Part shown: in pieces, positions 7,920 to 19,527 of the stretch
How the letters are laid out: each line of letters opens with the position of its first letter
How positions within the stretch are numbered: position 1 is the stretch's first letter
Assembly: GCF_003086415.1 (NCBI RefSeq)
Contig: NZ_QEFP02000001.1
Span: 1 to 23,031, forward strand
Direction of reading: 5' to 3'
DNA length: 23,031 nt
Source of the DNA: Candidatus Nanobsidianus stetteri
GTDB taxonomy: Archaea; Nanobdellota; Nanobdellia; Nanobdellales; Nanobdellaceae
The notes under the pieces: generated by a model
Seen by the model: only the letters and a program-made list of their open reading frames with translations
Told to the model about the DNA's origin: nothing
Databases searched by the model: none
Translations under genes and position numbers: made by a program

Positions 7920-9055
7920 TTTATTAATTGTTTAAATATAGTTTCCCTTATTCTATCCAAATCGGAATTTTTACCAGAATACATTTCTTCAAATAATTCT
8001 TTTATATAATTAAACATTTTTATTACTTCTTCCTTATCATTTACAAAAAAAGAACTATCTATTATACTATCTATTGTAATTACTTCATTATTTAATTTTA
8101 TTTCTTCATCTAAAGAATAAGAATCATCTAAAATTAAGTATCCAGATTCCATTAAATTTTCTAATAGATTTTTTATATTAATATAATAATCTTTCTTATA
8201 TCTAACTTTAATTTTTATAATCGTTTCCTTAGATTTATTATAAATATCATTCTTTAGTTTATTTAATCCATAATCATTATTTATTATATCTTCATAAATA
8301 TATATTGGCCTAACATTTAATTCTTTAAATTCTATATTATCATCTCTTACATAAAAAAATCCCTTCTTTATATTTTCTTCATCTTTTGATATTTCAGTCC
8401 TTTCAGTAGAACCTGGTAAAGCAAATATTATATTATCATGTTTTTCCAAATGTTTTTTATGAAAATGACCAAATGCATAATAATTAGCTTTGGGAAAATC
8501 TTCTGGAGATAAAATCCTTGGTTCTTTGCTATAACCTTCTAAAATACTTTCTGGAAATATATTTATTGCACCATGAAACATAAATATTGTATAACCATTA
8601 TTTTCAAATTTTAAATTAGATAAATTCTTTTTATAATATGCTCTCAATTGTTCATATGACAAATTTGATGGTTCAGATATTCCATAAATATATACATCCT
8701 TATATATAAATGGTTCTTTTATATTTGCCTCATATACTAAATCCAATCTTTTTAATATTTCTAAAACATTTTGTCTTAATCCTTTTGTATCATGATTTCC
8801 CCTAATAAATATTAATGGTATTTTATTATCTTTCAATTTAAACAATATATCCAATATTTCCAATAGATATTTTGAATCTATTCTAAAATAATCATCAAAA
8901 AAATCTCCAGAATGAATTATAAAATCTACCTTTTCTTTAATTGCAAATTCTATAACCTGTTTAAACGAATTTAGAAAATCATATTTTCTAATCTCACCAT
9001 ATTCTACCGGAATTTGGCATCCTAAATGGGTATCAGAAACATGAACAAATTTCAT
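7916..9055 (-). CDS. mre11: DNA double-strand break repair nuclease Mre11
   Basis: The calcineurin-like phosphoesterase motifs appear in order: HVSDTHLG, SGDFFD, RGNHD, FMFHG, GHFH. Confidence 0.92.
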   Translation of the reverse strand: MKFVHVSDTHLGCQIPVEYGEIRKYDFLNSFKQVIEFAIKEKVDFIIHSGDFFDDYFRIDSKYLLEILDILFKLKDNKIPLIFIRGNHDTKGLRQNVLEILKRLDLVYEANIKEPFIYKDVYIYGISEPSNLSYEQLRAYYKKNLSNLKFENNGYTIFMFHGAINIFPESILEGYSKEPRILSPEDFPKANYYAFGHFHKKHLEKHDNIIFALPGSTERTEISKDEENIKKGFFYVRDDNIEFKELNVRPIYIYEDIINNDYGLNKLKNDIYNKSKETIIKIKVRYKKDYYINIKNLLENLMESGYLILDDSYSLDEEIKLNNEVITIDSIIDSSFFVNDKEEVIKMFNYIKELFEEMYSGKNSDLDRIRETIFKQLIK

Positions 9056-9519
9056 TAAATATTATTGTATAAAAATTTTTTATTTATATTTTCCAGATAT
9101 TCTTTCAAATAATTTAAAACTATTTCCTTATCCTTTTTATAATGATCAAAACTTATTTTTAATAAAAAGGAATCTTCTGTATAATGTAATTTAATAATTT
9201 TATTTAATGTCAATTCATTCTTATCAATTCTTAGATAAATATTATAATTCTCATCAAAGTTGCAATTACTTTTTATATTTTCAAACTTTAATCCTAAAGA
9301 AATTAAATTTCTAAAAAATATATCTATGCTATTTTTATTATTAATTTTTATTTCATATACCTCAATTATATTACTTATTAATCCTTTGTCTTTATAATTA
9401 TTTATCTCTATCTTTTTTCTATCAATATCTTTTAATAATAAATCAATTGCATTTAATATTCTATTTTTATCATCCCATTCATGTATATTTACCCTTAATA
9501 GCACAAAAGAAATCCTCAT
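9055..9519 (-). CDS. Hypothetical 154-aa protein, first gene of the mre11-rad50 operon; weak resemblance to the COG1931/DUF54 RNA-binding family
   Basis: Its stop overlaps the mre11 ATG by 1 nt (TAATG at 9053-9057). It has no Walker motif, so it is not HerA. It is too short for NurA and lacks NurA motifs. The N-terminal RISFVLLRVNIHEWDDKNRILNAIDLLL loosely recalls the strand-H-x-T-E-D-x-x-K-V pattern of DUF54. I cannot verify this here. Confidence 0.5.
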   Translation of the reverse strand: MRISFVLLRVNIHEWDDKNRILNAIDLLLKDIDRKKIEINNYKDKGLISNIIEVYEIKINNKNSIDIFFRNLISLGLKFENIKSNCNFDENYNIYLRIDKNELTLNKIIKLHYTEDSFLLKISFDHYKKDKEIVLNYLKEYLENINKKFLYNNI

Positions 9520-9538
9520 TACAATTATATAAATAAAT

Positions 9539-9555
9539 AGAAAAGTTTATATTTA
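9539..9555 (+). promoter_or_regulatory. BRE/TATA promoter of pilin-like gene A1 (leaderless geometry)
   Basis: AGAAAAGTTTATATTTA, with the TATA centre about 25 nt upstream of the ATG at 9576. A near-identical element precedes paralog A2. Confidence 0.5.
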
Positions 9556-9575
9556 TAAAAAGCTTTATATTTAAA

Positions 9576-10064
9576 ATGGTAAAAAGAACTCAGGGTTTAC
9601 CTTTAAATACTATAATTTTGGCAATTATTGCAATAGTTGTATTGGTATTTCTTATATTAATATTCACTGGTGGAATTGGAAAATTCGTTGGACAAACTAG
9701 TCCATTTACTTCATCTAATCAAACAAATAATGCACTATGTTCAGAATATGCATCAGCAATAAACACACAAATGGGAACTTCTACCGATCCAAATGCTCAA
9801 TTACAAATGTTAGCAAATTCTCAATATGTAACTTCTAACTGTAGTATTTATTTCCAATATTCATTTACTTTATATAATGGTTCTGAAGTTGAATGTGGAC
9901 TTGGTTCAAACGCTTGTATAATGCTCAATTCTAACTCGGGTTCCGGCTCCGGTTCTGGTTCTGGAGGATCTGGTGGATCAGGAGGATCTTCTAGTTCCAG
10001 TAATACTGGTTCTGGATCTTCTTGTGCACCTCCAAATGGTATACCAGGCTGTGAACTTAAATAA
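9576..10064 (+). CDS. Pilin-like secreted/surface protein A1 (class III signal-like N-terminus, 6 Cys, Gly/Ser-rich spacer)
   Basis: The N-terminus MVKRTQGLPLNTIILAIIAIVVLVFLILIF is a short basic leader plus about 20 hydrophobic residues. There are six cysteines and N-x-S/T sequons (NQT, NCS, NGS). It is a paralog of 10145-10564 and lies next to a FlaI/PilB-family ATPase cluster. Confidence 0.6.
   Translation: MVKRTQGLPLNTIILAIIAIVVLVFLILIFTGGIGKFVGQTSPFTSSNQTNNALCSEYASAINTQMGTSTDPNAQLQMLANSQYVTSNCSIYFQYSFTLYNGSEVECGLGSNACIMLNSNSGSGSGSGSGGSGGSGGSSSSSNTGSGSSCAPPNGIPGCELK
9927..10022 (+). repeat. Gly/Ser-rich low-complexity coding tract (NSNSGSGSGSGSGGSGGSGGSSSSSNTGSGSS), specific to paralog A1
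   Basis: Read from the translation. It is locally GC-richer than its surroundings, uses mixed codons (ggt/gga/ggc, tct/tcc/tca/agt), and is absent from paralog A2. Confidence 0.85.
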
Positions 10065-10067
10065 AGA

Positions 10068-10080
10068 TTTATTTTTTATT
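10068..10080 (+). terminator. Oligo-T terminator candidate after A1
   Basis: TTTATTTTTTATT begins 4 nt after the stop codon and is duplicated after A2. Confidence 0.35.
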
Positions 10081-10108
10081 GCTAAATATTATTTATAAGG
10101 AAATACAT

Positions 10109-10125
10109 AGAAAATTTTATATTTA
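10109..10125 (+). promoter_or_regulatory. BRE/TATA promoter of pilin-like gene A2
   Basis: AGAAAATTTTATATTTA, with the TATA centre about 25 nt upstream of the ATG at 10145. It is a duplicate of the 9539-9555 element. Confidence 0.5.
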
Positions 10126-10144
10126 TAAAAAAATTTATATTTAA

Positions 10145-10564
10145 ATGATAAAAAGAACTCAGAATTTGCCTTTAAATACTATAATTCTAGCAATTATTGC
10201 AATAGCTATAGTTGTATTTCTTATTGGAAATTTCATTCTACCACCTAATCAACCAACTCCGCCAACCCCTCCAACTCCATCACCCAATCAAAAAATTTTT
10301 GCGCTATGTTCAGAATATGCATCAGCAATAAACACACAAATGGGAACTTCTACCGATCCAAATGCTCAATTACAAATGTTAGCAAATTCTCAATATGTAA
10401 CTTCTAACTGTAGTATTTATTTCCAATATTCATTTACTTTATATAATGGTTCTGAAGTTGAATGTGGACTTGGTCCAAACTTATGTATAAACCTTTCTGG
10501 AAGTAGCTGTAGTCCATCTATTGCTAGTCCACCCAATGCCATACCTGGTTGTGAACTTAAATAA
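10145..10564 (+). CDS. Pilin-like secreted/surface protein A2 (class III signal-like N-terminus, 6 Cys, Pro/Thr-rich spacer)
   Basis: The N-terminus is MIKRTQNLPLNTIILAIIAIAIVVFLIGNF. The core ALCSEYASAINTQMGTSTDPNAQLQMLANSQYVTSNCSIYFQYSFTLYNGSEVECGLG is identical to A1, as is the C-terminal IPGCELK. Confidence 0.6.
   Translation: MIKRTQNLPLNTIILAIIAIAIVVFLIGNFILPPNQPTPPTPPTPSPNQKIFALCSEYASAINTQMGTSTDPNAQLQMLANSQYVTSNCSIYFQYSFTLYNGSEVECGLGPNLCINLSGSSCSPSIASPPNAIPGCELK
10241..10291 (+). repeat. Pro/Thr-rich low-complexity tract (PPNQPTPPTPPTPSPNQ), specific to paralog A2
   Basis: Read from the translation. It lies directly after the N-terminal hydrophobic helix. The homologous A1 segment has the same length but is strongly diverged. 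Confidence 0.85.
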
Positions 10565-10567
10565 AAA

Positions 10568-10580
10568 TTTATTTTTTATT
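10568..10580 (+). terminator. Oligo-T terminator candidate after A2
   Basis: A duplicate of 10068-10080, placed between the A2 stop and the ATG at 10595. Confidence 0.35.
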
Positions 10581-10594
10581 GCTAAATATTATTT

Positions 10595-11233
10595 ATGATA
10601 GATAAAAATTATGTTTCATCTATTTTAGGTATATCAAAAACAAAATTACAAGAATTAATAAATGAAAAAATAAAGCAATATAAAAATTTAATTGATGAAG
10701 AAACAGCTATTTTATTGATATTAAAAGAAAGAGGACTAACATTAGAAGATTTATATAATATAAAAGTAAAAAATTTATATCCAGGATTAAAAGTAAGAGA
10801 AATAAAATTAAAGATAAATAAAATATTAATAAAAAAGGATAATTTAATAATTCTAGAAGCTGGAGATGAAACAGGATTAATTAAGTTAATAATTAAAGAT
10901 TATAAATGGAAAAGAAAAGAGAACTTATTAAAGGAAAATATTAACATAAAAGTAAAAAATGGTGTTGTTCTAAATAACTTTGTTCTATCAATATTCATAA
11001 ATAATATAGATCTAATAGAGAAGATAGATGAAGATATAAATCTAAATCAAAATTATATATCATATAGACATATAAGATTATTAAAAGAAAGAGAGAATAA
11101 TTATATAGTATTAACAGACAATTTTAATGTATTATATTTAGAAAAGAATATTCAATTAGAATATAATAAAACATATACAATAAAATTTTATAATAAAAGG
11201 CCCATCGAAATTATTGAATTAAAATCCTACTAA
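10595..11233 (+). CDS. Putative single-stranded DNA-binding protein, RPA-like (one OB fold)
   Basis: The N-terminal helical segment LIDEETAILLILKERGL is followed by IKVKNLYPGLKVREIKLKINKIL...LEAGDETGLIKLIIKDYKW. This follows the euryarchaeal RPA pattern as I recall it (L.PG...V.I..RV ... DETG.I.L..W). The identification rests on pattern only. Confidence 0.45.
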   Translation: MIDKNYVSSILGISKTKLQELINEKIKQYKNLIDEETAILLILKERGLTLEDLYNIKVKNLYPGLKVREIKLKINKILIKKDNLIILEAGDETGLIKLIIKDYKWKRKENLLKENINIKVKNGVVLNNFVLSIFINNIDLIEKIDEDINLNQNYISYRHIRLLKERENNYIVLTDNFNVLYLEKNIQLEYNKTYTIKFYNKRPIEIIELKSY

Positions 11234-13003
11234 ACTCATTAATTTATCTGGATTGTTATAATACATACTCATAATTTCTGCAATCTTTCTATAATTTCTT
11301 ATATTATTTTCTAGCATATATTCTAATACCCTTATTTTAAATTTGAAGTTGGTTTCTATATCATTTTTATTCCAATTTCTAATTTCAGCAATTTTATTTA
11401 ATACATAACTTTCTCCCGGTATATATGAATCATCCTTAGGATTCCATCTAAATGAAATTATCCTATCTACATCCTTTTTTTCTTTATTAAATCCTATTAT
11501 TTCATATATTTTATCTACCCTTCTTACATATTTTCCTTGATATCTCAATCTCTTAAGAAATACAACTCCATCCAATACTTCCAATAAAGATGGAGGTAAA
11601 TTAATTGGAGGGGATAATAATCTATCCATTAATGCTTCAAAACTTTCTGCATGTATAGTACCCAAACCAGCATGACCTGTTGCCATTGCCTGAAATAATA
11701 TATAAGCTTCCTCACCTCTTACCTCACCTACAATTATATAATCTGGTCTCTGTCTCAAAGCAGCTTTTAATAGATCAAACATAGTAACTTCACCATATCT
11801 ATTTGGACCATATCCTGGTCTTGCAACTTCTGATAACCAGTTTGGATGTGGTAACTTTAATTCTGCAGTATCTTCTATTGATATTATCTTTTTCTCTGGT
11901 TTGATAAATAGAGATATTGCATTTAAGAATGATGTTTTACCTGTAGCAGTTCCTCCAGATATTAATAATGACCTACCTTCTTCTATTAATGTCCATAAAT
12001 ATGCCAGCATATTAAAGTCAACAGTTCCATATAATAGTAGATCAATTGGCGTGAATGGATCTTCTGTAAATTTTCTAATTGTAAATGAAGAACCTCTCCT
12101 AGAAATATCTTTTCCAAAGGTTATTTGAATTCTTGCTCCATTAGGTAAAGCAGCATCTAATAAAGGATTTGCAACAGAAACAATTCTTCCAGTCCTTACA
12201 GATAACTTTATTACAAAATTATCCAATTCTTCATCAGAATTAAATTGCAAATTTGTTTTTATTTCACCTATTAATGGATTTCTATGGAATATATATATTG
12301 GATAATTTATACCTGTACAGGATATATCTTCTATTAATGGATCTCTCATTAATGGATCTATTATTCCATAACCAATTGTATCCCTTATTATGTAATATAA
12401 TATATATGGTAATTTATTTGGGTCTATCTTATATCCTTTTTCTTTTATTATATTTAAAGATTGCTTTATTATATAATTTTTCATATATTCTTCATTTTTT
12501 TCCATTCCTAAAGGAAGTTCGGATGTTCTTGCTAAATCATCAATTATTGAATTTATAATTTTTCTATCATTTTTATCTATACTAGGTTCTATTACATGAT
12601 ATACAAGCTCCCCATATTCATTATCCCATGATATATCTGCATATGCAAAGATATATTCTCTACCAAGAATATTCATCTTTGTTAGTGGATATCTAAATTG
12701 ATTTATATTTTCATTTTTTCCATACAATTCTATAAAAAAATTAATTTTATCTTTTTCAGTAATTTTTCTATTTTCTGTAGGTATATTAACAAAATTTATA
12801 TTATAAACTTTTTTGTTTCTTTTTTTCTTCTTTCTTTTTTCATATTTATTATTGTTTAATGGTATATAAATTGGTTGATATCCATTATTTGCACCCCCTA
12901 TTATATTTATTTTCTCAGTTCTTTCATTTAATTTTCTTTTTATTTCAATCTTTTTTCTTATTACATCTACAACATCATCAATAAAATCATAAATGTTATT
13001 CAT
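11219..13003 (-). CDS. Type IV filament assembly ATPase, FlaI/ArlI-PilB (GspE/VirB11) family
   Basis: Shows Walker A SGGTATGKTS, an Asp box/Walker B region (RQRPDYIIVGEVRGEEA) and a His box (ATGHAGLGTIHA), plus LVYHVIEP in the N-terminal domain as in FlaI-like proteins. The N-terminus is extended and carries a KRKKKKRNKK insert. Confidence 0.88.
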   Translation of the reverse strand: MNNIYDFIDDVVDVIRKKIEIKRKLNERTEKINIIGGANNGYQPIYIPLNNNKYEKRKKKKRNKKVYNINFVNIPTENRKITEKDKINFFIELYGKNENINQFRYPLTKMNILGREYIFAYADISWDNEYGELVYHVIEPSIDKNDRKIINSIIDDLARTSELPLGMEKNEEYMKNYIIKQSLNIIKEKGYKIDPNKLPYILYYIIRDTIGYGIIDPLMRDPLIEDISCTGINYPIYIFHRNPLIGEIKTNLQFNSDEELDNFVIKLSVRTGRIVSVANPLLDAALPNGARIQITFGKDISRRGSSFTIRKFTEDPFTPIDLLLYGTVDFNMLAYLWTLIEEGRSLLISGGTATGKTSFLNAISLFIKPEKKIISIEDTAELKLPHPNWLSEVARPGYGPNRYGEVTMFDLLKAALRQRPDYIIVGEVRGEEAYILFQAMATGHAGLGTIHAESFEALMDRLLSPPINLPPSLLEVLDGVVFLKRLRYQGKYVRRVDKIYEIIGFNKEKKDVDRIISFRWNPKDDSYIPGESYVLNKIAEIRNWNKNDIETNFKFKIRVLEYMLENNIRNYRKIAEIMSMYYNNPDKLMSLVGF

Positions 13004-13034
13004 ATATTTAATGAAAACTTGGGAAAATATAAAT

Positions 13035-13418
13035 TTAACTTAGATATAAAATAGAATTTGAAGAATAATTGTTATATTGTAAAAAGAAAGAGTTCAAACC
13101 TTGACCATAAATAGGATGAAAGTAAGAGTTATTATTATTCAAATTTATTGATAATAAATTTCCATTATAAGATATATATACAATATTATTAATCGCACTT
13201 ATTGAAAATTTATAATTTTGTGAAGGTTGACAAAAAAGATTTGCATCATATAGGTAAGAATAGTATATACAAAACTCAACATTCGATTCTATATAATTTA
13301 AAACTATTTTATCATAATTTGATGGATTTGTTATATGATTGAAATATAGAATCATTGATTGGGAAATAAAAAATAATATTAAAGTTATTAATACAATTTC
13401 TATTGCATTTACCGGCAT
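13035..13418 (-). CDS. Hypothetical pilin-like protein (127 aa) with N-terminal hydrophobic helix
   Basis: The N-terminus MPVNAIEIVLITLILFFISQSMILYF is followed by an N/Y/S-rich, probably beta-rich extracellular domain. Its ATG overlaps the stop of the 282-aa gene by 1 nt (TAATG), and it lies directly upstream of the ATPase. Confidence 0.45.
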   Translation of the reverse strand: MPVNAIEIVLITLILFFISQSMILYFNHITNPSNYDKIVLNYIESNVEFCIYYSYLYDANLFCQPSQNYKFSISAINNIVYISYNGNLLSINLNNNNSYFHPIYGQGLNSFFLQYNNYSSNSILYLS

Positions 13419-14266
13419 TATACAATAGAAGCTTGTACATAGTAGTATACTAATTGATTACAAACAGTAGAATTTGGATTATTAATAATATTTAATCCAT
13501 TATATTGCAAGTTTACATTAATAGAATTTCCATTTGTTGTAGTTGATGTTTCTCCTGTTGGTTCTATTATTATCCATTCGCATTGCCTATTTTGAGGATT
13601 ATACATTGGCCTACATGCTACCTGATATTGTATAACTCCGCTCAACTGGGTTGCTGAAAGCAAACACTCTGGATAATATGATGATCCTGCTATTCCAGTA
13701 TTATATTGAGGAATAAATAATACATTATTATTCTGAACTTCTATATTAAAATCAAAATATTGTGTTATAACATTATTAGTATTTGCTAAAGGCAATATTA
13801 GAGTATTATTGTTCACATCTTGTATTATTATATTAGAAGAATTCACCTTAACTATAAGATCAGGAATACCGCATAATTGAATAGAATTATAACCGGATGA
13901 AGGTATTGAAATAGAATTATTAACATTACATGGAATATATGTATAGTAATTATAATTTATTGGAATTACGGAAATAGATGGATTATAATAAATTGCAGGG
14001 GACTGAAATGAATATTGAATTAAATTATTATATATATTCAAAGAACCCTCAGGTAAATTTAATGTAACTGTTTGAGATCCTCTACTTTGTACAACAGATG
14101 GTATAGTTTCTGCCAAAGAAGTTAATTGACTCTGTATATCATTTATTGTAGATCTAATTTGAGATTTTTGTATTAGTGGTATACCCCATTCATATATCCC
14201 CATTGACAAACCAACTACAATAAGCCCTAACAATAAATAACTAACAAGCTGAGATTGTAATTTCAT
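13418..14266 (-). CDS. Hypothetical pilin-like / filament-associated protein (282 aa) with class III signal-like N-terminus
   Basis: MKLQSQLVSYLLLGLIVVGLSMGIYEWGIPLI resembles archaeal pilin N-terminal domains: a hydrophobic helix followed by an aromatic Y-x-W. The rest is N/S/T/Y-rich, with 6 Cys and 4 N-x-S/T sequons. Confidence 0.45.
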   Translation of the reverse strand: MKLQSQLVSYLLLGLIVVGLSMGIYEWGIPLIQKSQIRSTINDIQSQLTSLAETIPSVVQSRGSQTVTLNLPEGSLNIYNNLIQYSFQSPAIYYNPSISVIPINYNYYTYIPCNVNNSISIPSSGYNSIQLCGIPDLIVKVNSSNIIIQDVNNNTLILPLANTNNVITQYFDFNIEVQNNNVLFIPQYNTGIAGSSYYPECLLSATQLSGVIQYQVACRPMYNPQNRQCEWIIIEPTGETSTTTNGNSINVNLQYNGLNIINNPNSTVCNQLVYYYVQASIV

Positions 14267-14298
14267 TTTATAAATATATTAAAAAATTTTATTAATTT

Positions 14299-14850
14299 TT
14301 ATATCATCCTGTTATAACTTTGTATTGATGAACTTGTATAACTTGTACTTTGATTACTTTTTATACCCTCTATTTGTTTCTTAAGATTATCTAATAATTC
14401 TGCCACTTTTAGATTGGCTTTTTCTAAGTTTTCTATTCTCTTTAATAGTTCTATATTATTTTCATTTTTTTCTTTCTCTTTTGGCCTTAATAAAGCAGCT
14501 TCTTTAAATATATCAAATAAATTCTTTATTTCTCTATATAAATTATTTGTAACAACCACCAATTCTGATATTCTTGCTTGTAAGTCTATATTACTTTTTA
14601 TTAATGAATTTACAATTTCCTTATAAAATGATGTATCTATGTTTGATTGTGCATAATACATTTGAGCTTGAGCTTCCTTTTTAATTATTGGATTTGTTTC
14701 AGATGGTATTGAAACTTGTCTTTTTATTTCTTCAATATTATTTTTTAAATCATTTTTTAATGTAGCTAAATCGTCCTTTAAATTTTCTATCTCTTCAATC
14801 AATTTTTCAACAGGATCTGTTGGCATAAGTTCATACTCTTGCGATGGCAT
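14299..14850 (-). CDS. Hypothetical soluble coiled-coil protein (183 aa), first gene of the ATPase cluster
   Basis: There are heptad-like K/E/L/N-rich segments at both ends (EKLIEEIENLKDDLATLKNDLKNNIEEIK and IELLKRIENLEKANLKVAELLDNLKKQIEGIK) and no TM segment. It has its own TATA about 25 nt upstream. Confidence 0.5.
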   Translation of the reverse strand: MPSQEYELMPTDPVEKLIEEIENLKDDLATLKNDLKNNIEEIKRQVSIPSETNPIIKKEAQAQMYYAQSNIDTSFYKEIVNSLIKSNIDLQARISELVVVTNNLYREIKNLFDIFKEAALLRPKEKEKNENNIELLKRIENLEKANLKVAELLDNLKKQIEGIKSNQSTSYTSSSIQSYNRMI

Positions 14851-18535: not shown

Positions 18536-18974
18536 GGGAATATTAAATTATCAGTTTGGAGATAATATTGGAGATAAAATAATTGAAAAATATAAAGAAA
18601 AAATAAAAATTGAAAAAAGCAAAAAAACTGGGAGAATAAGAAGAATATATATAGATGATAAATTATTTGGAACAATAGAACCAACAACAGGATTTATTAT
18701 ATTAACGTTTTATGGAGGATTAATAGTAAAAGAACTGTTAAAATTTCCAAAGTATAGGATTGTTGTAAAAGATGAAGCAGTAAAATTTATAAAAGAGGGA
18801 AAATCTGTATTTAATAAATTTGTTGATAATTTGGATGAAAATATATTGCCAAAAGATATTGTATTAATAGTAGATAAAAATGATAATTTACTAGCAATAG
18901 GAGAAAGTTTATTATCTGGAAAAGAAATTAAAGATTTTAAAATAGGAGTTGCTGCAAAAGTAAAAAATGTTTGA
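18516..18974 (+). CDS. PUA domain-containing RNA-binding protein
   Basis: The N-terminal ILNYQFGDNIG motif and the C-terminal PUA-like segment (VKFIKEGKSVFNKFVDNLDENILPKDIVLIVDKNDNLLAIGESLLSGKEI) support the call. The ORF opens at 18477, but Met-14 (18516) gives the conserved N-terminus. Confidence 0.6.
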   Translation: MELSIVKGILNYQFGDNIGDKIIEKYKEKIKIEKSKKTGRIRRIYIDDKLFGTIEPTTGFIILTFYGGLIVKELLKFPKYRIVVKDEAVKFIKEGKSVFNKFVDNLDENILPKDIVLIVDKNDNLLAIGESLLSGKEIKDFKIGVAAKVKNV

Positions 18975-19527
18975 ATATATAATAAAAAAATATTATGGTA
19001 AATTAATAGATTATGCAAAAAGTAATAAAATATTAAGAAAGGAATTACTTTTATCTATATTTTTTGCAAATATGTTAATATACTCAATACCGCTATTTTT
19101 ATTTAGTTATTATTATATTGTTTTACCATATAATTTTTTGATAAGTTATTCAGAAATTATATCAAAGATATTATACTATTCTCATATAAATTTTACGTTA
19201 GAAAATAATGTTGTATATATAAAAAATATAAGTTTTATAATTGATCAAGAATGCACTGGCTTTAAATCAATATTTGGTATATTTGCCCTAGTATTTTCTA
19301 CACCTACATTAAATATAAAGAAAAAAATATATTATTTCATTATTCTTTCGCCAATATTGTTTATATTAAATATATTTAGGTTATGGTCTGTCTTTTATTT
19401 TTATTACATATTTAATGTTAATCCCTATTTCTTACATGATTTTTTATGGGAAATATTTACAACACTGTTTTTAATTATTTTTTGGCTAATATTTTTAATA
19501 AAAAATAAAAAAGAATTATTCGTTTAA
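18967..19527 (+). CDS. Small archaeosortase/exosortase-family protein (putative)
   Basis: It is a polytopic 186-aa protein with the family's ordered signature as I recall it: a loop then IIDQECTGFKSIFGIFAL (Cys96), ILNIFRLW (Arg138) and FLHDFLWEIF (His157). Its ATG overlaps the PUA gene stop by 8 nt. Confidence 0.5.
   Translation: MFEYIIKKYYGKLIDYAKSNKILRKELLLSIFFANMLIYSIPLFLFSYYYIVLPYNFLISYSEIISKILYYSHINFTLENNVVYIKNISFIIDQECTGFKSIFGIFALVFSTPTLNIKKKIYYFIILSPILFILNIFRLWSVFYFYYIFNVNPYFLHDFLWEIFTTLFLIIFWLIFLIKNKKELFV

Follow-up and report, generated by a model that had tools for sequence, protein, structure and literature searches.

We analysed a stretch of 23,031 nucleotides (nt) from Candidatus Nanobsidianus stetteri (contig NZ_QEFP02000001.1, positions 1 to 23,031; hereafter the window), in which two genes for small proteins of one family, A and B, lie head to tail on the plus strand. 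They are the sole family genes that a family hidden Markov model (HMM) finds in the window, and they share a perfectly identical core between diverged flanks, a pattern that is probably the product of gene conversion from A to B. DDW05_01955 of Candidatus Nanobsidianus stetteri matches gene A at 99% identity, and the ~100 close homologs of gene A all come from Nanoarchaeota metagenome-assembled genomes or hot-spring metagenomes; the family is confined to Nanoarchaeota-type hot-spring sequences. The two genes and their parts are as follows.

9531..9575, plus strand: upstream region of gene A, with a BRE (transcription factor B recognition element)/TATA-like box, GAAAAG TTTATATTTATAAA, at 9540-9559
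9576..10064, plus strand: gene A, the type-1 paralog, an open reading frame (ORF) of 162 amino acids
9735..9905, plus strand: tract of exact, maximal identity, copy-A side (putative donor), coding for most of the head domain
9933..10016, plus strand: Gly/Ser loop of gene A (residues 120-147), with 6-nt and 9-nt micro-repeats; not in gene B
10065..10100, plus strand: 3′ flank of gene A, with a T6 run at 10072-10077; duplicated to 10096 and followed by the junction AAGG at 10097-10100
10101..10144, plus strand: upstream region of gene B, with a TATA-like box as in gene A and an 18-nt tandem duplication
10145..10564, plus strand: gene B, the type-2 paralog, an ORF of 139 amino acids
10223..10300, plus strand: type-2-specific segment IGNFILPPNQPTPPTPPTPSPNQKIF, with a 9-nt Pro-Thr-Pro micro-repeat
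10304..10474, plus strand: tract, copy-B side (putative recipient); minimal converted stretch 10311-10408, outer type-2-specific sites 10303 and 10475
10565..10596, plus strand: 3′ flank of gene B, with a T6 run at 10572-10577, continuing into the next ATG (10595)

The protein encoded by gene A opens with a basic n-region (MVKRT) and the invariant motif QGLPLNT, which lead into a hydrophobic helix and the FTGGIGKF hinge. Next come a Ser/Thr/Asn linker, in which an NQT sequon lies, and a compact head that contains Cys and spans ~65 residues in family proteins; a Gly/Ser loop follows, and an IPGCELK hairpin, conserved in the family, closes the C-terminus. Tandem Repeats Finder (TRF) resolves the loop into repeats of period 6 (3.8 copies) and period 9 (3.3 copies); loop length is hypervariable among alleles and accounts for most of the size range of family proteins (~128-187 amino acids). 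Gene B has the same signal/helix start and head as A, with a Pro-rich linker and a short Cys-containing tail (…CINLSGSSCSPSIASPPNAIPGCELK), and is without both the FTGGIGKF hinge and the NQT sequon. Its Pro-Thr-Pro micro-repeat lies at 10253-10275 (period 9, 2.6 copies) and the duplication ahead of it at 10107-10143 (period 18, 2.1 copies). From these motifs, the type-1 stalk would be a flexible hinge followed by a linker with an N-glycosylation sequon, and the type-2 stalk would be Pro-rich.

Both genes are relatively rich in G+C (33-35%, versus 23.7% in this archaeal window), with peaks of 41-44% in the Gly/Ser loop of A and 40% in the Pro linker of B. N-x-S/T sequons (NQT, NCS, NGS) are conserved across the family, and B has an NLS sequon in its tail. 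Nearly all family C-termini read G-C-[EQK]-[LI]-[KQ], placing a Cys four residues from the end in a CaaX-like spacing (C-x-[LI]-x); the spacing is not strict, as a few members have one residue more.

A conserved GAAAAGTTTATATTTATAAA box lies ~25-30 nt 5′ of each ATG and a T6 run lies 3′ of each stop. The BRE/TATA-like box is kept 5′ of both paralogs in distant loci, and its distance from the ATG of gene A suggests a leaderless transcript; the T6 run behind gene A may act as a terminator, by analogy with archaeal oligo-T termination. The first-pass annotation had assigned a promoter and a terminator to each unit, and an archaeal-type box and T6 run are indeed present in each, readable solely as putative archaeal-type features. 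A scan for sigma-70 promoters and hairpin terminators, which is unsuited to an archaeon, returned nothing relevant.

Uneven identity along the duplicated units

The duplicated units extend from 9531 and 10101 to 10096 and 10596, end at the AT of the next gene's ATG and are separated by a 4-nt junction. Within them, 9735-9905 equals 10304-10474 over 171 nt with 0 mismatches, and the match is maximal, ending at A versus G on the 5′ side (9734) and at T versus C on the 3′ side (9906). The first-pass annotation had described this tract and these boundaries, and both proved exact, with the unit ends marked by repeats at 9531-9575/10101-10145 and 10029-10096/10529-10596. Identity between A and B, segment by segment, is as follows.

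Upstream box region (9531-9575 versus 10101-10145): 41/45 (91%)
Codons 1-26: 68/78
Linker: 41/81
Tract: 171/171
21 nt after the tract: 14/21
Last 68 nt including the 3′ flank (10029-10096 versus 10529-10596): 61/68 (90%)

The alignable flanks of the tract are 87-91% identical and the linker is ~50% identical; if sites in the tract differed as often as those in the well-aligned flanks (11%), 171 nt in a row would match with a probability of ~5e-8. A 69-nt Gly/Ser-coding indel is present in gene A and not in B. Codons 31-52 are, as had been noted, of the same length in both genes, but this is not a matter of 22 substituted codons. A MAFFT protein alignment resolves the equal length: seven codons (ILIFTGG) are deleted and ~7 are inserted, the latter consisting of the 9-nt Pro-Thr-Pro micro-repeat.

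Types 1 and 2 are old paralogs

We collected 58 related loci and scanned them with the family HMM. The family gene or genes always lie between the same two neighbours. About 33 loci carry a single type-1 gene, at least nine carry tandem pairs with both flanks visible, and one (L054) carries a single type-2 gene. All upstream (type-1) copies have …LVFLILIFTGGIGKF and a Ser/Thr/Asn/Gln linker carrying the NQT sequon, and all downstream (type-2) copies have …FLIG.FIPQ.P.QPTPPP.P.PSPNQ. Type-2 copies with the homologous linker occur in L004, L010, L011, L019, L020, L022, L035 and L039, and further in L044, L046, L049, L050, L052, L054 and L055. Homologs of this Pro-rich linker span at least 10 divergent loci, among which the flanking-gene proteins differ by up to 9%; type 2 is therefore an old, maintained paralog, neither fresh nor decaying.

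The sister lineage represented by L004, L010 and L011 has an A+B pair as in the window, with B linker and tail almost identical to those of gene B, and the type-2 segment at 10223-10300 is nearly identical in the second copies of L004, L010 and L003. In L010 and L004, the A and B cores show 86% nucleotide and 75% protein identity. A and B are old tandem paralogs rather than a recent duplicate, and they would be functionally distinct, with one head on two different stalks.

The lone type-2 gene of L054 (485-883), between the usual neighbours, is identical to its counterpart in L052 (626-1024) except for the C-terminal tails; in L052 the upstream neighbour is visible and is followed by the type-2 gene. 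In L048 (2092-2436), the type-1 gene is truncated after GLG (115 amino acids) and ~165 nt of extra spacer precede the downstream gene; its tail has probably been frameshifted or disrupted.

Probable gene conversion from A to B

With L010_2, the type-2 gene of L010, as the comparator in a family in which only one core site is diagnostic of type 2, a maximum-chi-square analysis of gene B (window_2) against gene A (window_1) and L010_2 found 18 consecutive A-like informative sites at 10311-10408 (chi-square 61, permutation p ≤ 5e-4), flanked by B-ortholog-like sites at 10303 and 10475. At informative sites, window_2 equals L010_2 outside the tract and window_1 inside it. In a four-sequence alignment, type-specific sites abut the tract on both sides, and states private to L010_2 are lost from window_2 inside it. 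L010_2 and the type-2 gene of L004 both have the linker and tail of gene B and depart from it at the 18 core sites. From the A-like run and its two bounding sites, the converted tract is 98-171 nt long. The direction of transfer follows from the polarisable sites, at which type-1 orthologs have the window state, as does the copy-A tract, and the other type-2 genes have the TN[SD]S motif of L010_2.

Synonymous divergence (pS) of the window pair gives the same picture: it is 0.19 over codons 1-26, 0.63 over the last 11 codons (non-synonymous divergence, pN, 0.04) and 0.026 in the core. Family-wide, core pS is 0.26; synonymous sites are therefore free to vary, which excludes a nucleotide-level constraint on the core. 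That the uneven identity reflects a conversion tract over the core rather than uniform drift had been proposed from the window alone, and the maximum-chi-square analysis, the four-sequence patterns and pS all bear this out. A second assembly, L003 (GCA_003086475.1), likewise has the B linker joined to an A-like core, although its contig ends within the repeat. The independent assemblies L003, L004, L010, L011 and L020 give indirect support for both copies and the tract on single molecules, and tandem pairs are found in JGI and ENA contigs.

In the mechanism that we propose, homologous recombination between the adjacent copies would have carried 98-171 nt of A head-coding sequence into B and wiped out B's own type-2 head sequence. 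The tract limits would be set by drops in similarity, at the type-specific linker on the 5′ side and at the loop and tail on the 3′ side. Such conversion recurs across the family with different limits. Slippage at the micro-repeats of linkers and loops, swapping of tails between alleles and unequal crossing-over that loses one copy would add to it, leaving a mosaic locus of variable copy number amid otherwise conserved neighbours.

Recurrent exchange and mosaic alleles

In a four-point comparison, cores from the same locus group with each other in 28 of 36 locus pairs, and this 'concerted' grouping persists in 20 of 28 pairs once the window is left out. Over the N-terminal 78 nt the signal is mixed (17 versus 16). 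An independent conversion is visible in L056_2 (L056 307-723), which has type-2 ends and type-1 sequence over ~250 nt including the linker. This copy also has a frameshift near its start and is without an in-frame start codon; either a pseudogene or a sequencing error may explain this. In the L020 pair the cores are 92% identical, with the 3′ half of the core common to both genes.

The C-terminal ends are exchanged as well. Only the tails distinguish L010_2 from L011_2, and likewise L052_1 from L054_1. Genes of both types carry the 'SGSSC.PSIASPPNAIPGC' tail, which is closer between distant lineages than the cores are; L008_1 and L035_2, for example, are 95% identical in the tail and 79% in the core. 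Cassette exchange, which the first-pass annotation had raised for the flanks, is thus apparent as the shuffling of C-terminal loops and tails between alleles and paralog types, and not as a supply of silent cassettes. The B linker and the A loop are micro-tandem repeats by TRF, and slippage therefore adds length variation.

L005 215-634 (ENA ERZ27247215, k141_33308) carries a single hybrid gene between the usual neighbours, with the promoter, linker and core of A and the tail of B; its tail and 3′ flank are 100% identical to window_2 over 131 nt. It is either a 569-nt deletion allele produced by unequal crossing-over through the tract or an assembler collapse (k 141 < 171). The strain comparison that had been suggested as a check thus yielded both recombinant alleles and changes in copy number.

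Selection on the locus

We compared pN and pS between flanking genes and core over 22 syntenic loci. pS was equal in the two (0.26-0.27), and pN was 0.133 in the core versus 0.027-0.028 in the flanking genes. The ratio of non-synonymous to synonymous divergence (dN/dS) was distributed as follows.

Flanking genes: 0.08-0.09
Signal/helix: 0.18
Core: 0.46
Linker: 0.70

With this elevated dN, the A/B family protein evolves at ~5 times the pace of its neighbours. The data do not show positive selection over the whole gene: by this crude measure, dN/dS stays below 1 in all segments, and positive selection was not detected. The values for linker (0.70) and core (0.46) leave the earlier suggestion of diversifying selection in the flanks without support.

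Alternative explanations

Several points weigh against conversion of B by A. Across the whole family, a single core site is diagnostic for type 2, and what counts as a 'type-2 head' is set mainly by the TNSS/NDS motif and the close relatives L004, L010, L011 and L020. Nor can the direction of conversion be polarised over the 3′ third of the tract, where the family consensus is shared. The exactness of the identity and the linkage of B linker, A-like core and B tail on one molecule are seen in assemblies only, and L005 could be an assembler collapse (k = 141, shorter than the 171-nt repeat) instead of a real deletion allele. Function, finally, comes without a family, fold or proteomic match. 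Weighing these points, we still consider the reading as a whole, conversion from A to B between old tandem paralogs at a mosaic, copy-number-variable locus, to be likely. Repeat collapse, bubble popping or a chimeric path in short-read metagenome assembly might mimic it. The L003 contig breaks inside the tract, L005 (MEGAHIT k141) joins the 5′ half of A to the 3′ half of B through the tract in a collapse-like manner, and the two proteins of the window have no exact match on record. However, tandem A+B pairs occur in many independent assemblies, in L003 the B linker independently runs into 60 nt or more of A-like core, and a true type-2-like B core (~88% identical) would have no long k-mers in common with A, so that collapse cannot make the pattern. 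An artefact is very unlikely on this evidence, and at most the last few percent of identity could be an assembler effect. A further alternative is a recent tandem duplication with very fast divergence of linker and tail, through diversifying selection or hypermutation, in which the core has merely not diverged so far. The low-complexity micro-repeats that flank the tract are able to change fast by slippage, and the linker has the highest dN/dS of the segments (0.70). Against this, L004, L010 and L003 have almost the same B linker and tail as the window, and homologs of both are present in many distant lineages, so that these segments predate the window lineage; the cores of the same pair in L010/L004 differ at 14% of sites; and synonymous divergence in the flanks reaches 0.19-0.63. 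These flanks are old paralog-specific modules (pS 0.19 and 0.63), and we regard a recent duplication as extremely unlikely.

The cores might also be kept identical without recombination, through an RNA or regulatory element or extreme codon selection, and the core is indeed the most conserved protein segment and the genes have raised G+C (33-35% versus 24%). Yet core pS is 0.26 family-wide, the same as in neighbouring genes, the cores of other tandem pairs are only 75-92% identical, and there is no Rfam match, nor did the tests made here reveal covariation-supported structure or synonymous sites conserved family-wide; the probability that we assign to constraint of this kind is close to nil. 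Programmed antigenic variation of the pilE/pilS or vls kind, with one copy serving as an archive for an expression site, would account for surface-type products, recurring conversion between neighbours, mosaic alleles and the nearby FlaI-like ATPase. It sits poorly with the presence of two copies only, both full-length with a conserved promoter-like box and ATG, with the homogenisation of the conserved head while the variable parts are not replaced, and with single-copy loci in most strains and events on evolutionary rather than clonal time scales. We consider it highly unlikely, and the pilin antigenic-variation analogy drawn earlier fails because each copy has a promoter-like box and ATG of its own, silent cassettes are absent and it is the conserved head that is homogenised.

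A target of a diversity-generating retroelement (variable and template repeats) was considered separately and rejected, as the two tracts are identical. Neither the ORFs of the window nor the precomputed Pfam lists for the syntenic loci include a reverse-transcriptase-like gene.

Fold and signal of the A and B proteins

An AlphaFold 2 model of protein A built from a 95-sequence alignment has a mean predicted local distance difference test (pLDDT) score of 74. It comprises a helix (residues 10-30), a disordered segment (33-46), an alpha/beta head (47-118, pLDDT ~90), a disordered Gly/Ser loop (120-147, pLDDT < 50) and a C-terminal hairpin (155-161) that returns to the head. Foldseek found no match for the model in PDB or BFVD. 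Searches of A and B against Pfam and NCBIfam gave no family match, and the same held, above cut-off, for neighbours and distant relatives. Exact-sequence look-ups of the two proteins returned no record, and no homolog was located in the N. acidilobi proteome supplement, searched via neighbouring gene names.

A profile search of 1.8 billion representatives recovered only ~9 full-length relatives, together with 1275 proteins that are alike in the N-terminal 45-60 residues alone. These at least 1275 clusters (at 50% identity) are small, Cys-rich proteins with a near-invariant 'M.KK[AG]QGL[SP]LNTIIIAIIVLVVLVVLI.IFTG', and no curated Pfam or NCBIfam family covers this N-terminal superfamily. Generic transmembrane (TM) models matched the superfamily N-termini below their cut-offs: Flp1_like in 20 of 69 (best E 6e-4) and the prepilin-type N-terminus model in 11 of 69 (best E 3.5e-3). 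Some members are themselves clustered. In L059 (7399-8865), three superfamily genes stand in tandem, and in L061 (5848-8270) one lies behind three KKAQ-type ORFs and a gene for a 1255-amino-acid adhesin-like protein; an archaeal Rpr2 gene adjoins in both loci.

Gln occupies +1 in class III signals of the Epd/DUF361 type. Read as a motif, the N-terminus of A would divide as MVKR-T/Q-GLPLNT, with R at -2, T at -1 and Q at +1; some orthologs, like most of the 1275-member superfamily ('KK[AG]Q'), have A at -1 instead. A class-III (pilin-like) signal on A and B is plausible on this reading. Cleavage at QG/L, which would put G at -1, was rejected because that residue is N in B and S in many orthologs. 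Neither protein matched PF04021, PF07790 or TIGR02537 at E ≤ 0.1. The best family-profile match, PDB 8fk7 (an archaeal 'flagellin'/pilin, E 0.05), was rejected as a homolog because a profile of the N-terminus only matched generic TM peptides and hhalign gave 11% probability.

Anchoring in the membrane or processing at it, with exposure on the cell surface, is the most likely arrangement for A and B. We file them as N-terminally anchored or class-III-like-processed small surface proteins, for which the curated models, the PDB profile searches and hhalign do not support homology with pilins. Among Nanoarchaeota, 'hypothetical external' proteins with one N-terminal TM helix have the highest non-synonymous single-nucleotide polymorphism density (PMC6142677), and N. 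acidilobi has prominent surface glycosylation (PMC4935971).

Genomic neighbourhood

The locus is bounded by two anchor genes, beyond the second of which lies a putative secretion operon.

9055..9519, minus strand: upstream neighbour, PF01877 RNA-binding protein (Pfam E 8.6e-13), present in nearly all related loci; locus anchor
10595..11233, plus strand: downstream neighbour, a 212-amino-acid RPA-like protein with weak replication-factor-A/DUF2240 similarity; locus anchor
11219..14850, minus strand: FlaI-like secretion-ATPase operon, encoding a 183-amino-acid coiled-coil protein, proteins of 282 and 127 amino acids and a 594-amino-acid ATPase

The PF01877 gene shares the upstream side of the locus with genes for Rad50 and Mre11, all on the minus strand, and the RPA-like gene lies immediately 3′ of the A/B family copy or copies in almost every related locus. 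The FlaI-like operon is convergent to the RPA-like gene; the 3′ ends of the RPA-like (plus strand) and FlaI-like ATPase (minus strand) genes overlap by 15 nt, at 11219-11233. The 594-amino-acid ATPase matches T2SSE (5e-36) and scores 425 bits against NCBIfam FlaI, under the 550-bit cut-off. It lies one gene from A and B on the opposite strand, and operon synteny is kept in L001, L002 and L004. The 282- and 127-amino-acid products have N-terminal hydrophobic helices and begin in a pilin-like manner (MKLQSQLVSYLLLG and MPVNAIEIVLITLILFF, respectively); a Pfam scan gave no family match for either. Among the window genes there is neither a platform gene (FlaJ/TadC) nor a prepilin peptidase gene. 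Makarova et al. (2016; PMC4858521) did not identify cognate pilins for one nanoarchaeal ATPase clade and reported two nanoarchaea without the peptidase. The operon is taken as context only for A and B.

Further downstream lies a thermosome gene. At 18967-19527 (plus strand), a 186-amino-acid membrane protein matches exosortase/archaeosortase TIGR04178 (48 bits, cut-off 23), with weaker matches to ArtE and pacearchaeosortase. A and B were rejected as archaeosortase substrates of the PGF-CTERM type, as they end in …IPGCELK and have no C-terminal hydrophobic helix. Rfam and tRNA scans returned no match.

Implications

Nanoarchaeota are obligate ectosymbionts whose host-contact molecules are not known. 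A fast-evolving, copy-number-variable spot with mosaic alleles, encoding small, probably glycosylated surface-type proteins and adjoining a FlaI-like operon, makes the A/B locus a good candidate for host interaction. Conversion between tandem paralogs is a textbook mechanism; neither the gene family nor its widespread N-terminal module has been characterised. As an example of segmental conversion the locus is clean and can be dated, in an archaeal genome that is tiny and reduced yet encodes Rad50 and Mre11. The N-terminal module recurs in more than 1,000 protein clusters that have no annotation, which suggests that archaeal secreted proteins include a large class not annotated so far.

A bolder proposal, which we rate as rather unlikely, is that the family supplies the missing filament or tip subunits of a nanoarchaeal type-IV-filament system, with heads matched by conversion and host range tuned by the locus. 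If true, it would place the family within a very large unannotated superfamily with a 'KK[AG]/QGL[SP]LNTI…FTG' class-III-like signal (the slash marking cleavage), and the two paralogs would present the same host-binding head on two kinds of stalk, one flexible and glycosylated, the other rigid and Pro-rich. Conversion would then keep the heads matched because they co-assemble or bind one host ligand, and loop and tail shuffling with copy-number change would tune the host range of these obligate ectosymbionts.

Comparison with known systems

The external proteins surveyed by Jarett et al. (2018; PMC6142677) resemble A and B in coming from Nanoarchaeota, in having a single N-terminal TM helix and in evolving fast relative to housekeeping neighbours; that study reports a category, not the A/B family, and no tandem paralogs or conversion. 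The pilE/pilS system of Neisseria shares non-reciprocal, short-tract transfer between nearby copies of a surface gene that yields mosaic alleles. Here, in contrast, there are no silent promoterless cassettes, the sequence moved is a conserved one and high-frequency switching is not in evidence.

A and B share with class III signal proteins a basic n-region that leads into a short, strongly conserved motif and a ~22-residue hydrophobic helix. If cleavage falls at [KR][A/G/T]/Q, they would also share a basic residue at -2, Gln at +1 and a variable G/S/N at +2. A FlaI-like ATPase and other proteins with an N-terminal helix are encoded nearby, and distant superfamily members stand in tandem arrays or beside KKAQ-type pilin-like ORFs. 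They differ in lacking a match to PF04021, PF07790 or TIGR02537 and in having Thr as the usual -1 residue. A disordered linker separates helix and head in the AlphaFold 2 model, unlike the continuous alpha-1 helix of pilins; hhalign against the 8fk7 N-terminus reached 11%, and the window has no platform protein or prepilin peptidase.

Another close parallel is segmental concerted evolution between tandem genes for prokaryotic surface filaments or surface proteins, as in duplicated flagellin/archaellin and pilin genes. There, as here, the paralogs are adjacent and on the same strand, a homogenised tract lies between paralog-specific sequence, synonymous divergence collapses in the tract only, and unequal crossing-over alters copy number. 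The A/B family departs from these cases in being uncharacterised, with no detectable pilin, flagellin or archaellin domain, and in the part of the protein affected: it is the globular head that is homogenised, and the stalk and linker that stay specific to each paralog.

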